DNA of 64,000 nt from Escherichia phage LQ5, in the sequence record OR677401; one strand, written 5' to 3'. A program made the position numbers and the translations under genes. Positions 3,791 through 6,658 of the stretch are shown here, in pieces. The notes beneath the pieces are model-generated. The model saw nothing but the letters and a program-made list of their open reading frames with translations. It was not told where the DNA came from and searched no databases. Position 1 is the first letter of the stretch; each line of letters starts with the position of its first letter.

Positions 3791-3820
3791 GTTTACATCT
3801 CCTGTAGTCATGATACTATA
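3791..3820 (+). promoter_or_regulatory. T4-type early promoter (GTTTAC -35, GATACTATA -10) with SD-sequestering inverted repeat
   Basis: arms atctcctgtag (3797-3807) and ctacaggagat (3831-3841) flank the -10. Confidence 0.7.
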
Positions 3821-3846
3821 GACCTATCAACTACAGGAGATTAAAA

Positions 3847-4263
3847 ATGACTCGTATCAACCTTACCTTAGTATCTGAATTGGCTGACCAACACTTAATG
3901 GCTGAATATCGTGAATTACCACGTGTTTTCGGTGCAGTTCGTAAGCATGTTGCTAATGGTAAACGTGTCCGTGATTTCAAAATCAGTCCTACTTTTATCC
4001 TTGGCACAGGCCATGTTACATTCTTTTACGATAAGCTTGAATTTTTACGTAAGCGACAAATTGAGCTTATAGCCGAATGTTTAAAACGTGGTTTTAATAT
4101 CAAGGATACTACTGTCCAGGACATTAGTGACATTCCTCAGGAATTCCGTGGTGACTATACTCCACACGAAGCTTCTATTGCTATATCTCAGACCCGTTTG
4201 GATGAAAAAATTGCACAGCGTCCTACCTGGTACAAACATTATGGCAAGGCTATTTACGCTTAA
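3847..4263 (+). CDS. denV: endonuclease V (pyrimidine dimer DNA glycosylase)
   Basis: 138 aa, almost identical to T4 endonuclease V as recalled ([29 protein letters not shown]...). Confidence 0.95.
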
Positions 4264-4306
4264 TTAAATCCGTGATAGAATACTTCTATCAACTTAAGGA
4301 ATAACA

Positions 4307-4666
4307 ATGAAAACTTATCAAGAATTTATTACTGAATCTACTCAGCGCATTAACGAAGCTATGTCTCCTGAACAATTGGCTAAGGCTAAAGAAGGGCTGA
4401 ACCCATCTGAAGTTTTTAAAGTTACAGGTAAAGACTTTGCTTCCATGGCCACTAACCAAAGTCTGGCTAAAGAACTTAAATCTAAATCTAACTTCATTCA
4501 TGCTACGTGGAATGGTGATTCTCTTACTTCAATAAGTGTGTACAATAAAAAAGGTCTCCTTAAGAGTTCTTATGGCGCGGATGCCATCCGTGTTTCTAAA
4601 TCAGATTGGCATAAAAACACTACTAAAGCAGAAAAACCTCATAACCCGGCACTAGACCATCTTTAA
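4307..4666 (+). CDS. ipII: internal protein II-like (capsid-targeted)
   Basis: MKTYQEFITES leader; 119 aa. Confidence 0.6.
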   Translation: MKTYQEFITESTQRINEAMSPEQLAKAKEGLNPSEVFKVTGKDFASMATNQSLAKELKSKSNFIHATWNGDSLTSISVYNKKGLLKSSYGADAIRVSKSDWHKNTTKAEKPHNPALDHL

Positions 4667-4674
4667 GGCTTAAT

Positions 4675-4932
4675 ATGAAAACTTACCAAGAATTTATTAC
4701 AGAATCCACTTTAGTTTCTAAACGTTGGAATATGATTGTAAACGTTAAACCTTCCGGCACTGAAGTTTCTATGGCCGACCCTAATGATGACGAACTTGAG
4801 CACGCTTTTAGCTCTAAAGAAACTGACGAGAAAGTGGTTAAGCAACTGGTTGCTGATGCAGATCAACTTCGTAAAGTAGCAGATGTTGTTAAGCTGTTTA
4901 CTAAGAAAGGTTTTAAACACGAAGAACGTTAA
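4675..4932 (+). CDS. internal protein, third CTS-bearing paralogue
   Basis: MKTYQEFITEST leader repeated; 85 aa. Confidence 0.6.
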   Translation: MKTYQEFITESTLVSKRWNMIVNVKPSGTEVSMADPNDDELEHAFSSKETDEKVVKQLVADADQLRKVADVVKLFTKKGFKHEER

Positions 4933-4944
4933 TTAGCATTTTAA

Positions 4945-5068
4945 ATGGGAGCAACCTGGACCTCACAATTCTGTGAGGGACTCCCGCCAACCTGTAATAA
5001 GGTCGAGCCCAAGTGCGGTAATGGGTAAATGCAGAAAGGGACGAATTAATGTGCCAAGGAACGGCCCT
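4945..5068 (+). other. GC-rich structured non-coding island (candidate small RNA or regulatory hairpin)
   Basis: perfect hairpin cctcaca-attc-tgtgagg nested in gggag...ctccc; no supported ORF; GC visibly above flanks. Confidence 0.35.
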
Positions 5069-5081
5069 CAAAGGAAATACT

Positions 5082-5609
5082 ATGAAATTTTTAACTCCCA
5101 TTTATCTAACCTTAATGCACGCCTTCGCTGAACGCGCCATTGAACGTTTAGACTCAGACCAATATACCTGGTATGAACCTGCTTCAAGAATGCAAGAGTT
5201 TGGTACTCTTCGACTTGATGGCGGACGCCAAACAGGTAAAACAAGTGCCCTTGCTCAGTTCGCCGCTGATTGGGTTTCCAAGGGTAATGATGTGATTGTT
5301 ATGTCGAGTTCTTCGCATCGCTCGCGAGAAATTTGTAATGTAATAAAACAGGTTTCTAAGGCACACCCACATCTCCAAGTCGAAGGTCCTGGTTTTGTTG
5401 TCTATGATACTGTGCGCAGTTTCCTTGATGAAGACAATTTCCATAAGTATCGTGGACTATCTGTTACTCGATTATTGATTATTATCGAAGAGCCAATGCG
5501 CCTTCCAGCGATGGATAAGTTCTATGAAGCTTACCAGGTAATGATTAATAAATTTATGTGCCAAGGCGACAAGCCTTTGCCTCTGTTCTTTGTGATAGGA
5601 ATGCAATGA
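5082..5609 (+). CDS. hypothetical P-loop NTPase
   Basis: Walker A-like GGRQTGKTSAL; AGGAAA before ATG 5082. Confidence 0.6.
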   Translation: MKFLTPIYLTLMHAFAERAIERLDSDQYTWYEPASRMQEFGTLRLDGGRQTGKTSALAQFAADWVSKGNDVIVMSSSSHRSREICNVIKQVSKAHPHLQVEGPGFVVYDTVRSFLDEDNFHKYRGLSVTRLLIIIEEPMRLPAMDKFYEAYQVMINKFMCQGDKPLPLFFVIGMQ

Positions 5610-5902
5610 TGACTGATGAAGAACTTTTTGAGTTCTGTTATTTCTCACGTAAGGTTCGAAGAGAGGACCTTACTGCAAATTTCGAATATGCTTATTTCTA
5701 TCCATTAGAATATGTATTCATGACAGGGCCCTTTAAGGGCTCTCGTTTTAGATGTCATGCTCCTAGTATCCGATTAATGAAACAGGTTCCTTACTTCACT
5801 CTCGAGTTCATCTCAGGGCCTTGTAAGGGTATTATTGCTCGTAGTCTCTTGACTTATGACCAAGAGATTCATATGATTTCTGATTGGAAAAAATATGTCT
5901 AA
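5606..5902 (+). CDS. hypothetical protein
   Basis: ORF with ATGA overlap to upstream gene. Confidence 0.5.
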   Translation: MMTDEELFEFCYFSRKVRREDLTANFEYAYFYPLEYVFMTGPFKGSRFRCHAPSIRLMKQVPYFTLEFISGPCKGIIARSLLTYDQEIHMISDWKKYV

Positions 5903-6113
5903 ATTGACAATTGAAGGTTCTGAAGAAGCTCTGAAAAGATTTGTTGAATGGCTTAATGGACCAGGTGAACAAGACTTTCTGGAAGTCTGGGATGGCGGTC
6001 GGTGGAATGGTAAAGAAATGATTTACCCGACTACCTATATCTCCGTGCAAGGTTGGACTGAAGGCCTTCGTTTGGTAGAATATGATATCGCAACTGGCGA
6101 GGAAGTGAAATGA
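5895..6113 (+). CDS. hypothetical protein
   Basis: ORF 72 aa, coupled to neighbours. Confidence 0.55.
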   Translation: MSKLTIEGSEEALKRFVEWLNGPGEQDFLEVWDGGRWNGKEMIYPTTYISVQGWTEGLRLVEYDIATGEEVK

Positions 6114-6388
6114 TTGAAGATATCAAGGGTTATAAGCCGCATACCGACGATAAAATCGGTAAAGTAAACGCTATCAAAGATGCTGAAGTTCGTCTTGGGT
6201 TAATGTTTAAAGCTCTGGAAGAAGAACATGTTACTCATTATATGAACTTAGATACCGAAGAGGTTTCTGAACAAGAACTAGACCAGGCTCATGAACGCAT
6301 CACCCAGATTCGTAATGCAATTGACCGTCTGAAAGAAGCAAGCATGTGGGCGTGTCGTTCCGTTTTCCAACCCGAGGAAAAATACTGA
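6110..6388 (+). CDS. hypothetical protein
   Basis: ORF 92 aa, ATGA overlap. Confidence 0.55.
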   Translation: MIEDIKGYKPHTDDKIGKVNAIKDAEVRLGLMFKALEEEHVTHYMNLDTEEVSEQELDQAHERITQIRNAIDRLKEASMWACRSVFQPEEKY

Positions 6389-6597
6389 TGAAAATTGAAA
6401 GTTTACAAGATTTCCAGCGTATCATCGGTGAAGCCTGTACTGGCTACCACAAATACTTGCTTGATGACCGAATGGCCTGTCTTGAAGAAGGTGAAGTACA
6501 GTATGCAGCCCAACGCCTTGAACAGGTGAAAGAGTTTTACCCTGTACTGGTAGAAATTTGTTCAGCTGCTGGAAAACTTACCCCATTCCAAGAATAA
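6388..6597 (+). CDS. hypothetical protein
   Basis: ATG 6388 overlapping upstream TGA; GAGGAAAA upstream. Confidence 0.55.
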   Translation: MKIESLQDFQRIIGEACTGYHKYLLDDRMACLEEGEVQYAAQRLEQVKEFYPVLVEICSAAGKLTPFQE

Positions 6598-6601
6598 AGC
6601 A

Positions 6602-6631
6602 GTTTACATCTCCTGTAGACGTGGTACTATA
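6602..6631 (+). promoter_or_regulatory. T4-type early promoter with SD-sequestering inverted repeat
   Basis: GTTTAC / GGTACTATA; arms atctcctgtag (6608-6618) and ctacaggagat (6642-6652), same arm sequences as the 3797/3831 cassette. Confidence 0.7.
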
Positions 6632-6658
6632 GACCTATCAACTACAGGAGATTACAAA

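Follow-up and report, generated by a model that had tools for sequence, protein, structure and literature searches.

Inverted Repeats Joining Early Promoters to the Shine-Dalgarno Sequences of denV and regB in Escherichia Phage LQ5: A Candidate Gate on Translation

In a 64,000-nucleotide (nt) stretch of Escherichia phage LQ5 (sequence record OR677401; hereafter the window), the genes denV and regB are each preceded by a short cassette in which an early promoter and the Shine-Dalgarno (SD) sequence carry the two arms of one inverted repeat. Why should one arm lie in the part of the promoter that is not transcribed from its own start, and the other on the ribosome-binding site? The best-supported reading, which we regard as probable in view of the sequence comparisons and predicted RNA folds given below, is that translation of each gene is gated by the promoter from which its RNA originated.

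On the + strand, the pattern ATCTCCTGTAG-N{15,35}-CTACAGGAGAT was found exactly twice in the whole window, at 3797-3841 and 6608-6652, both times with 23 nt between the arms, and never in 100 dinucleotide shuffles (mean 0.00, max 0). This bears out the preliminary description, which had reported identical 11-bp inverted repeats bracketing the -10 hexamer, with GGAG in the 3' arm, upstream of denV and of the gene at 6659. Both copies lie within a 63-nt direct repeat with 90% identity, whose reference copy (cassette 1, 3785-3847) comprises the promoter, leader and SD of denV and whose second copy (cassette 2, 6596-6658) precedes regB. Repeat search delimited the inverted repeat of cassette 1 at 3792-3808/3830-3846 (17 nt, 88%, with 12 nt perfect) and that of cassette 2 at 6608-6618/6642-6652 (11 nt, 100%).

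Promoter scans located the -35 hexamer GTTTAC at 3791-3796 and 6602-6607, and the -10 hexamer TACTAT, preceded by TGn (3811-3813 and 6622-6624), at 3814-3819 and 6625-6630. Thus, both copies have the form GTTTAC-N17-TACTAT with TGn, that is, a T4-type early promoter, and the same cassette is present before T4 denV. The 5' arm ATCTCCTGTAG, which is an anti-SD sequence, makes up the first 11 nt (3797-3807) of the 17-nt promoter spacer of cassette 1 (3797-3813) and lies at 6608-6618 in the spacer of cassette 2. The 3' arm CTACAGGAGAT (3831-3841 and 6642-6652) holds the SD sequence GGAG (3836-3839 and 6647-6650), 7-8 nt ahead of the ATG start codons of denV (3847) and regB (6659); the -10 hexamer of cassette 1 is placed in the hairpin loop. 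Both cassettes are intergenic. Two details given earlier had to be corrected: The second copy, worded as GATACTAT, reads GGTACTAT, and the ATG does not abut the 3' arm, being separated from it by TAAAA in copy 1 and TACAAA in copy 2.

Using standard sigma-70 geometry (hexamer spacing), we infer that transcription starts at 3826 in cassette 1 (an A, 7 nt after the -10 hexamer) and at 6637 in cassette 2. Because the 5' arm precedes the -10 hexamer in both copies, RNA made from the promoter itself cannot include this arm, irrespective of where exactly it starts; this agrees with the earlier claim that such a transcript lacks the upstream arm.

RNA folding was then compared for transcripts with and without the 5' arm. 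Read-through RNAs of 101 nt are predicted to form the stem upstream of both denV (-30.9 kcal/mol, z -5.84) and regB (-19.2 kcal/mol, z -2.50), whereas 46-nt RNAs beginning at the expected +1 reach only -1.6 and -1.4 kcal/mol, respectively, no better than shuffled sequences. The hairpin taken alone has a predicted energy of approximately -18 to -20 kcal/mol. The mean probability that the SD is unpaired, P(unpaired), is 0.02 in the read-through RNA versus 0.47 in the predicted-start RNA for cassette 1, and 0.03 versus 0.45 for cassette 2. As a positive control, the hairpin of gene e (ATG 2594) gave an SD P(unpaired) of 0.0 in the same calculation. Together with the compensatory changes described below, these predictions support the original suggestion that a hairpin in read-through RNA hides the ribosome-binding site and that the promoter's own transcript frees it. 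A terminator scan revealed no terminator-like site above chance at or between the cassettes (matches in 2000-9000 were not above shuffle level), and read-through from the ipIII and denV promoters is therefore expected. Searched against Rfam at gathering thresholds, the whole window matched no family.

Some complementarity is also found between the arms. TGATA (3811-3815, comprising TGn and the start of the -10 hexamer) is complementary to TATCA (3825-3829, within the conserved CCTATCAAC around +1), and the two form an inner 5-bp helix in the predicted read-through fold of cassette 1. Copy 2 (6622-6626 and 6636-6640) has TGGTA instead of TGATA, which results in a weaker inner helix. Conservation of early promoters beyond the usual elements was put down to polymerase contacts in the 2010 T4 reviews (PMC3014915, PMC2988021). 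Judging from the folds, part of this "extra" early-promoter consensus might be structural.

If the arms are maintained by pairing in RNA, they should change together. We scanned IMG/VR with the conserved promoter core and obtained 62 distinct cassettes, and ortholog searches yielded 18 regB loci and 79 denV loci. Arm variants among related cassettes include atctccAgtag/ctacTggag and atctccATtag/ctaATggagat, and denV orthologs have arms such as ttcctccaag/cttggaggaa, atctccgtttg/caaacggagat and the 14-bp ttctcctgtagatg/catctacaggagaa. One regB ortholog (L074) has 15 perfect bp, and a 15-bp variant tttctcctctttatg/cataaagaggagaaa is present among the orthologs.

Cassettes entered the covariation set on two grounds alone, CTCC at positions 3-6 of the spacer and, downstream, GGAG ahead of an ATG, so the four core pairs are fixed by selection and uninformative; the register of the pair count was anchored on the -35 hexamer on one side and GGAG on the other, and was not fitted to pairing. 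Flank positions were paired in 61 of 90 cases versus 39.3 +/- 4.3 after permutation, with none of 100,000 permutations reaching 61, and at least six different Watson-Crick flank pairs were present. Over the helix, 84% of cells were paired versus 71.1 +/- 1.8 expected (0/500 shuffles), both sides had changed in 6 of 11 pairs, and compensatory cells numbered 35 versus 16.3 expected (0/500). The covariation measure was 0.307 versus 0.112 expected (0/500), and slid registers gave at most 0.067. When RNAalifold was applied to an unsupervised alignment, the helix was recovered, with compensatory changes in 4 of 7 pairs.

The position of the anti-SD is not the same in all orthologs. Many denV orthologs have a spacer without an anti-SD, and the end of the -10 hexamer together with the discriminator pairs with the SD instead (gtcctcc/ggaggac, atgtcctcct/aggaggacat, gtgttctc/gagaacac and tagtagtct/agactacta). 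The 5' arm of these discriminator-type (type-B) orthologs ends approximately +6 to +10 after the -10 hexamer. In 31 of 44 distinct denV/regB upstream regions, a stretch complementary to the SD region lies upstream of it (z < -2, median approximately -4). Within denV/regB upstream regions, the 5' arm is found in the spacer or at -5 to +10 from the end of the -10 hexamer, and never wholly within the transcribed leader. In addition, an anti-SD in the spacer tracks a short leader (32/35 vs 8/31, p = 4e-8); the motif is therefore tied to the SD, not to promoter strength.

To see how far the layout extends, we scanned the window for GTTTAC-N17/18-TAnnnT. The same layout with other arm sequences was observed on the + strand at 14992, 22372 and 56218, and variants of it at 51487 and 44753. 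The cassette at 14992-15049 (5' arm ATCTCCGGTAG, 14998-15008; 3' arm CTACTGGAGGT, 15032-15042; ATG 15047) has arms atctccggtag/ctactggaggt that form 11 pairs, two of them G.U (predicted free energy -29.5 kcal/mol, z -5.05), and its SD P(unpaired) is 0.02 in read-through versus 0.31 in start-site RNA. For the cassette at 22372-22432 (TCTCCTCACGTGT, 22382-22394; ACACATGAGGAGA, 22412-22424; ATG 22430), the arms tctcctcacgtgt/acacatgaggaga cover 13 positions with one mismatch, and the corresponding values are 0.12 and 0.86. The arms ttctcctcatg/catgaggagaa of the cassette at 56218-56276 (TTCTCCTCATG, 56224-56234; CATGAGGAGAA, 56259-56269; ATG 56274) form a perfect 11-bp stem (-26.8 kcal/mol, z -4.29; SD P(unpaired) 0.01 vs 0.65). 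Two anti-SDs are present in the cassette at 51487-51542 (ATG 51540), ACCTCC in the spacer (51493-51498) and GACCTC between the -10 hexamer and +1 (51516-51521); both pair with GGAGGT(C) at 51531-51537, and SD P(unpaired) is 0.00 versus 0.31. The member at 44753-44808 is degenerate: Its 5' arm ATCTCCTGTAG (44759-44769) is intact and its 3' arm is shortened (cTTGGAGAA, with GGAG at 44796-44799), and an ortholog of this cassette (L025) has a perfect 11-bp stem TTCTCCAGTAG/CTACTGGAGAA.

T4 itself shows the same arrangement. T4 denV has the same cassette as the window, with a 10-bp stem, and T4 regB has GTTTAC-uuuuccucuugac-ugugg-TATAAT...guuaagaggagaa, in which 13 pairs including 2 G.U are formed by different arms in the same layout. 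Of the 12 promoter-proximal starts in 64 kb of T4, 7-8 show the same kind of switch, including imm.1, mrh.2, modB, motB.2, denV, regB and mobD.5. In the window, an SD P(unpaired) below 0.2 in read-through RNA was calculated for 8 of 19 promoter-proximal starts versus 16 of 94 promoterless starts (p = 0.027). The motif was first described for the two cassettes; its exact sequence occurs twice, and the layout is seen at approximately 8/19 starts in the window and 7-8/12 in T4. On sequence grounds, the layout appears to be that of a class of T-even early-promoter cassettes and not a peculiarity of the two copies. We found no description of early-promoter/SD pairing in the accessible literature, although an earlier mention in older T4 work is possible, and the 2010 T4 reviews describe SD-sequestering hairpins only with late promoters (PMC3014915, PMC2988021). 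That an anti-SD in the untranscribed part of the promoter is a general, undescribed design rule of T-even early promoter cassettes is a more tentative proposal, less likely to hold than not.

Inverted repeats that bracket the -10 hexamer and do not reach the SD were also observed. In the window, they occur in early-type promoters at 23379-23420 (gggacc/ggtccc) and 57331-57375 (gagagcc/ggctctc), and repeats of T4 dmd, T4 ipII and several regB orthologs (L065-67) likewise bracket the -10 hexamer and stop before the SD. A model in which the repeat gates the SD leaves the role of such repeats unexplained.

How could such a cassette act? In the proposed mechanism, each cassette would be a strong early promoter of the T4 type, with the anti-SD placed in its untranscribed part, which is the -35/-10 spacer here and the stretch from -10 to +1 in some orthologs. 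RNA from the cassette's own promoter would begin approximately 5 nt ahead of the 3' arm, leaving GGAG free, translated and open to cleavage by RegB. Transcripts entering from the ipIII or denV promoter upstream would include both arms, and a stem of 11-12 bp, extended by the inner 5-bp helix UGAUA/UAUCA, would bury GGAG. Such read-through RNA would be translationally silent for denV and regB, and its GGAG would be shielded from RegB. RegB cuts single-stranded GGAG in early mRNAs, and it has been reported that RNA structure protects GGAG from it (PMC3014915); because of this protection, GGAG is expected to be exposed to RegB only in promoter-proximal RNA. Expression of each gene would then follow its own promoter, active only in the first minutes of infection, and be insulated from upstream transcription, and units of promoter, SD and gene would become portable. 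In T4, the early promoter used by regB shuts off after 2-3 min (PMC3014915).

Several points weigh against this mechanism. Its support is wholly computational: The start site comes from hexamer spacing, and read-through is assumed from the lack of predicted terminators. Approximately half of the related cassettes have no anti-SD, the window-wide enrichment given above is modest, and in regB orthologs L065-67 the -10-bracketing repeat ends 7 nt before the SD is reached. Descent and recombination link the cassettes to one another, and their independence is therefore overstated by the shuffle tests. Folding of sense and antisense strands is equal overall (Wilcoxon p = 0.25), sense RNA being favored, by 4-11 kcal/mol, only in the G.U-containing cassettes (window 14992, T4 regB and T4 motB.2). 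Because there is no general strand asymmetry, strand specificity rests on these few G.U cases and on the fact that the 3' arm coincides with the SD. Finally, the stop codon of the open reading frame (ORF) upstream of cassette 2 is 10 nt before the 5' arm, and a terminating ribosome might transiently open the stem.

Other explanations of the repeats should also be considered. The cassettes might be mobile elements like the promoter-early stem-loops (PeSLs) of other T4-type phages, in which the stem-loop serves mainly to terminate or attenuate transcription from upstream and as a place for homologous recombination, and overlaps the SD only incidentally. Several observations favor this reading. 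Besides the 63-nt direct repeat, related cassettes are dispersed in the window at 3088, 3791, 6602, 10509, 14992, 44753 and elsewhere. The homology of JS98-like phages starts exactly at 3791, and the indel containing the ORF at 6388-6597 ends at 6596, the 5' edge of cassette 2. The Dhakavirus regB cassette (cassette 2) is 87% identical to the T4 denV cassette, more alike than to the T4 regB cassette, which therefore points to cassette replacement, and chimeric cassettes were found (L051, and window 44753 compared with L025). Moreover, PeSL stem-loops can sit between the -35 and -10 hexamers or overlap the latter, and one has been shown to terminate transcription (PMC2839356). However, no T-run follows the stems here (TTAAAAATG and TTACAAAATG) and the terminator scan was empty at these sites; the 23-nt loop and AT-rich stem are unlike the GGGG/CCCC stems of PeSLs; and a synthetic ipIII-cassette-regB junction, as expected from deletion between the two cassettes, was not covered to at least 80% in one place by any deposited phage record. 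Recombination needs only identity, and leaves unexplained both the compensatory changes and the fact that the 3' arm is always the SD. We consider this explanation unlikely as an alternative function, and exchange of cassettes is compatible with gating by promoter of origin as an evolutionary side effect of it.

Still less likely, in our opinion, is that the hairpin serves RNA stability, either shielding GGAG of long transcripts from RegB or blocking a 3'-exonuclease so that polycistronic RNA survives. It is true that regB is itself one of the two genes, that its SD is a RegB target, and that, with the A-rich tail that comes after it, GGAG in the window is similar to the RegB/S1 consensus GGAGRAYARAA. 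On the other hand, the same layout precedes many unrelated genes, and T4 denV keeps the stem though its GGAG is RegB-resistant for sequence reasons. A helix of approximately -18 kcal/mol over the SD would block ribosomes anyway, so that protection would come with silencing and is better regarded as something that follows in addition from the gating model. The bracketing of the -10 hexamer could instead suggest action in DNA, as an operator for a repressor of early promoters, or as a cruciform or hairpin in replication or recombination, given that most stems are perfect palindromes folding equally on either strand and that the mechanism of T4 early-promoter shut-off is not understood (PMC3014915, PMC2988021). 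This is highly improbable, as arms that differ between cassettes and covary are a signature of pairing and not of a protein recognizing a fixed sequence, the 5' arm may be in the spacer or in the discriminator, with the 3' arm on the SD in either case, and the G.U pairs of T4 regB, T4 motB.2 and window 14992 become C.A mismatches on the other strand, with a loss of 4-11 kcal/mol. We give equally little credence to the absence of any selected function, in which a spacer CT-rich for promoter reasons would meet GA-rich SDs and the identical arms would stem from recent cassette duplication. The two near-identical window copies alone prove nothing, and the CTCC/GGAG core pairs in any combination; but the positions flanking this core pair far above permutation (0/100,000; 0/500) and do so through several kinds of Watson-Crick pair, the spacers of long-leader cassettes lack CTCC, and T4 regB and L074 hold 13-15 bp with unrelated arms. 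A DNA operator and pure common descent were rejected on the basis of the covariation and the movable 5' arm.

The window belongs to a Dhakavirus (Tevenvirinae), with bases 3000-8000 being 98.9% identical to Shigella phage PSD9 and 98% to phage WG01. Along the + strand, the order is e (2594-3082), ipIII (3170-3766), cassette 1 directly 3' of ipIII, denV (endonuclease V, 138 amino acids, 3847-4263; identified from the ORF list and PSD9 annotation), seven small ORFs, cassette 2, regB (GGAG-specific endoribonuclease, 152 amino acids, 6659-7117; identified from PSD9 annotation and ortholog search), vs and tk.

Internal-protein (IP)-like genes are found on both sides of denV. ORFs 4307-4666 (119 amino acids) and 4675-4932 (85 amino acids) start with the same leader of approximately 50 nt as ipIII (3170), ATGAAAAC(T/G)TA(T/C)(C/A)AAGAATTTAT..., encoding MKTYQEFI. 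This leader looks like an internal-protein capsid-targeting leader, suggesting two extra IP-like genes downstream of denV. QL01 and L007-type relatives have approximately 329 nt of unrelated sequence in place of window 4337-4986. The GC-richer and apparently non-coding 4933-5048 is homologous to the N-terminus of T4 vs.8 (VRDSRQPVIRSSPSAVMGK..., GTG 4973), and this vs.8-like N-terminus (window 4947-5131) is in another frame than the annotated ORF 5049-5609. Compared with T4, the vs.8 homolog is therefore frameshifted near 5040; a pseudogene, an error in sequencing or recoding could each account for this. The small ORF 6388-6597 is present in the window, PSD9 and QL01 and missing from JS98-like phages, in which the regB cassette directly follows the stop of the preceding gene. 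The spacer of the ipIII promoter, CTCCTAGAATTGTGA (3096-3110), is 87% complementary to TCACAATTCTGTGAG (4963-4977), 1.85 kb downstream and inside the frameshifted vs.8 region; in T4 ipII, two halves matching CTCCTAGAATTGTGA/TCACAATTCTGTGAG adjoin as a hairpin around the -10 hexamer. The separated halves in the window could be left over from a cassette that was split, or they could match by chance.

If gating by promoter of origin is correct, translation would depend on which promoter made the RNA. Each gene would be expressed only from its own immediate-early promoter whatever transcription enters, including regB, whose nuclease is said to need tight control, and promoter-gene units would be context-independent and easily shuffled. 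This would explain how dense, terminator-poor T-even early regions avoid over-expressing downstream genes and how promoter and gene cassettes are swapped between genomes without loss of correct regulation, and it could account for part of the conservation of early promoters beyond RNA-polymerase contacts. It could also contribute to the abrupt fall of early protein synthesis despite continuing read-through transcription. The cassette would represent a compact natural insulator part, combining a promoter and a translational gate in approximately 60 nt. Since T4 denV, regB and motB.2 share the layout, T4 itself is suited to a direct test.

Among known systems, PeSLs were the first to be compared with the cassettes, and the likeness is partial: The composite build, repetition and plasticity agree, and the position of the stem-loop and the involvement of the SD differ. 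PeSLs have been described in RB49/phi1, PST/T4 and nt-1/KVP40 (Arbiol et al. 2010, PMC2839356; Comeau et al. 2014, PMC4122927), and their sigma-70-type early promoters usually have AT-rich DNA upstream. Like them, the cassettes are short, repeated, co-oriented and intergenic, combine an early promoter, a stem-loop, and an SD and ATG at the 3' end, and occur as dispersed copies in plastic regions, coinciding with breakpoints of indels or replacements; their GTTTAC-N17-TACTAT with TGn fits the PST/T4 PeSL consensus TTTACW-N17-TAYWAT (PMC4122927). However, the PeSL stem-loop is a compact hairpin wholly upstream of the start, described and tested as a terminator or attenuator; the SD is set apart from it at the 3' end, and these papers do not describe SD sequestration (PMC2839356, PMC4122927). 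PeSL stem-loops fall into five positional subclasses, all before +1, and are GC-rich in RB49 (PMC2839356). In the window cassettes, the SD itself serves as the 3' arm, within the transcribed leader, and the 23-nt loop holds the -10 hexamer and the predicted start; no T-run follows their stems, and the terminator scan gave no match at them. A terminator-like hairpin is present at denV loci of some 346-378 kb phages (L106, L107, L108 and L112), where it is GC-rich, lies approximately 60-90 nt upstream of denV and overlaps the -35 hexamer of a TTGAC-N17-TATAAT promoter (e.g., GGGTTGACTTCGGTCAGCCCTTTTT). This composite of terminator and promoter is much nearer to the RB49-type PeSL than the window cassettes are.

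The IP-locus homology motifs that Repoila et al. (1994) found in T-even phages, according to PMC2839356, resemble the cassettes in having T4-type early promoters and AT-rich stem-loops of variable size next to polymorphic internal-protein genes; in that description, they are linked to shuffling of IP genes and not to SD sequestration. The repeats of T4 ipII and ipIII bracket the -10 hexamer without reaching the SD, unlike those of the window cassettes. Outside phages, the sigG gene of Bacillus subtilis behaves in a similar way, in that read-through RNA from the upstream spoIIG operon is untranslated owing to a hairpin occluding the ribosome-binding site and RNA from its own promoter is translated. 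It shares with the cassettes the occluded ribosome site of the read-through RNA, but it is a single bacterial developmental gene, with no portable repeat and no 5' arm in the promoter spacer.

The nearest relatives appear to be T4 e, soc, 49 and I-TevI, in each of which a promoter lies within the hairpin that sequesters the SD (McPheeters et al. 1986; reviewed in PMC3014915). Long transcripts that reach these genes from upstream promoters have both arms and hide the SD and/or AUG; short ones, begun at a promoter located at or within the 5' arm, lack this arm and are translated (PMC3014915). The window's own gene e (ATG 2594) has this e-type arrangement, with TATAAATA directly before the 5' arm. 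A resembling late-promoter/hairpin layout is observed at the start 20334 of a 357-amino acid ORF (window 20250-20340), whose SD AAGGG is within a hairpin ATACCCTTA...TAAGGGTAT directly preceded by TAATAAATA (SD P(unpaired) 0.0 in long vs 0.47 in short RNA), and similar long/short switches without an early promoter were found at starts 23774 and 53671. Like T4 e, soc, 49 and I-TevI, the denV and regB cassettes have an SD that is predicted to be base-paired in read-through RNA (P(unpaired) 0.02-0.03, with covariation) and a promoter placed so that its own transcripts, starting where hexamer spacing suggests, lack the 5' arm. The T4 genes have an internal late promoter TATAAATA that delays expression; in contrast, no TATAAATA is present in either cassette, the GTTTAC/TACTAT promoter being of the early, sigma-70 type, with the -35/-10 spacer or the discriminator occupied by the 5' arm. 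Thus, the expected effect is also different, with expression confined to the immediate-early period rather than being late only. By analogy, the cassettes appear to do with an early promoter what the hairpins of e, soc, 49 and I-TevI do with a late one, and these hairpins are a closer precedent for them than PeSLs.

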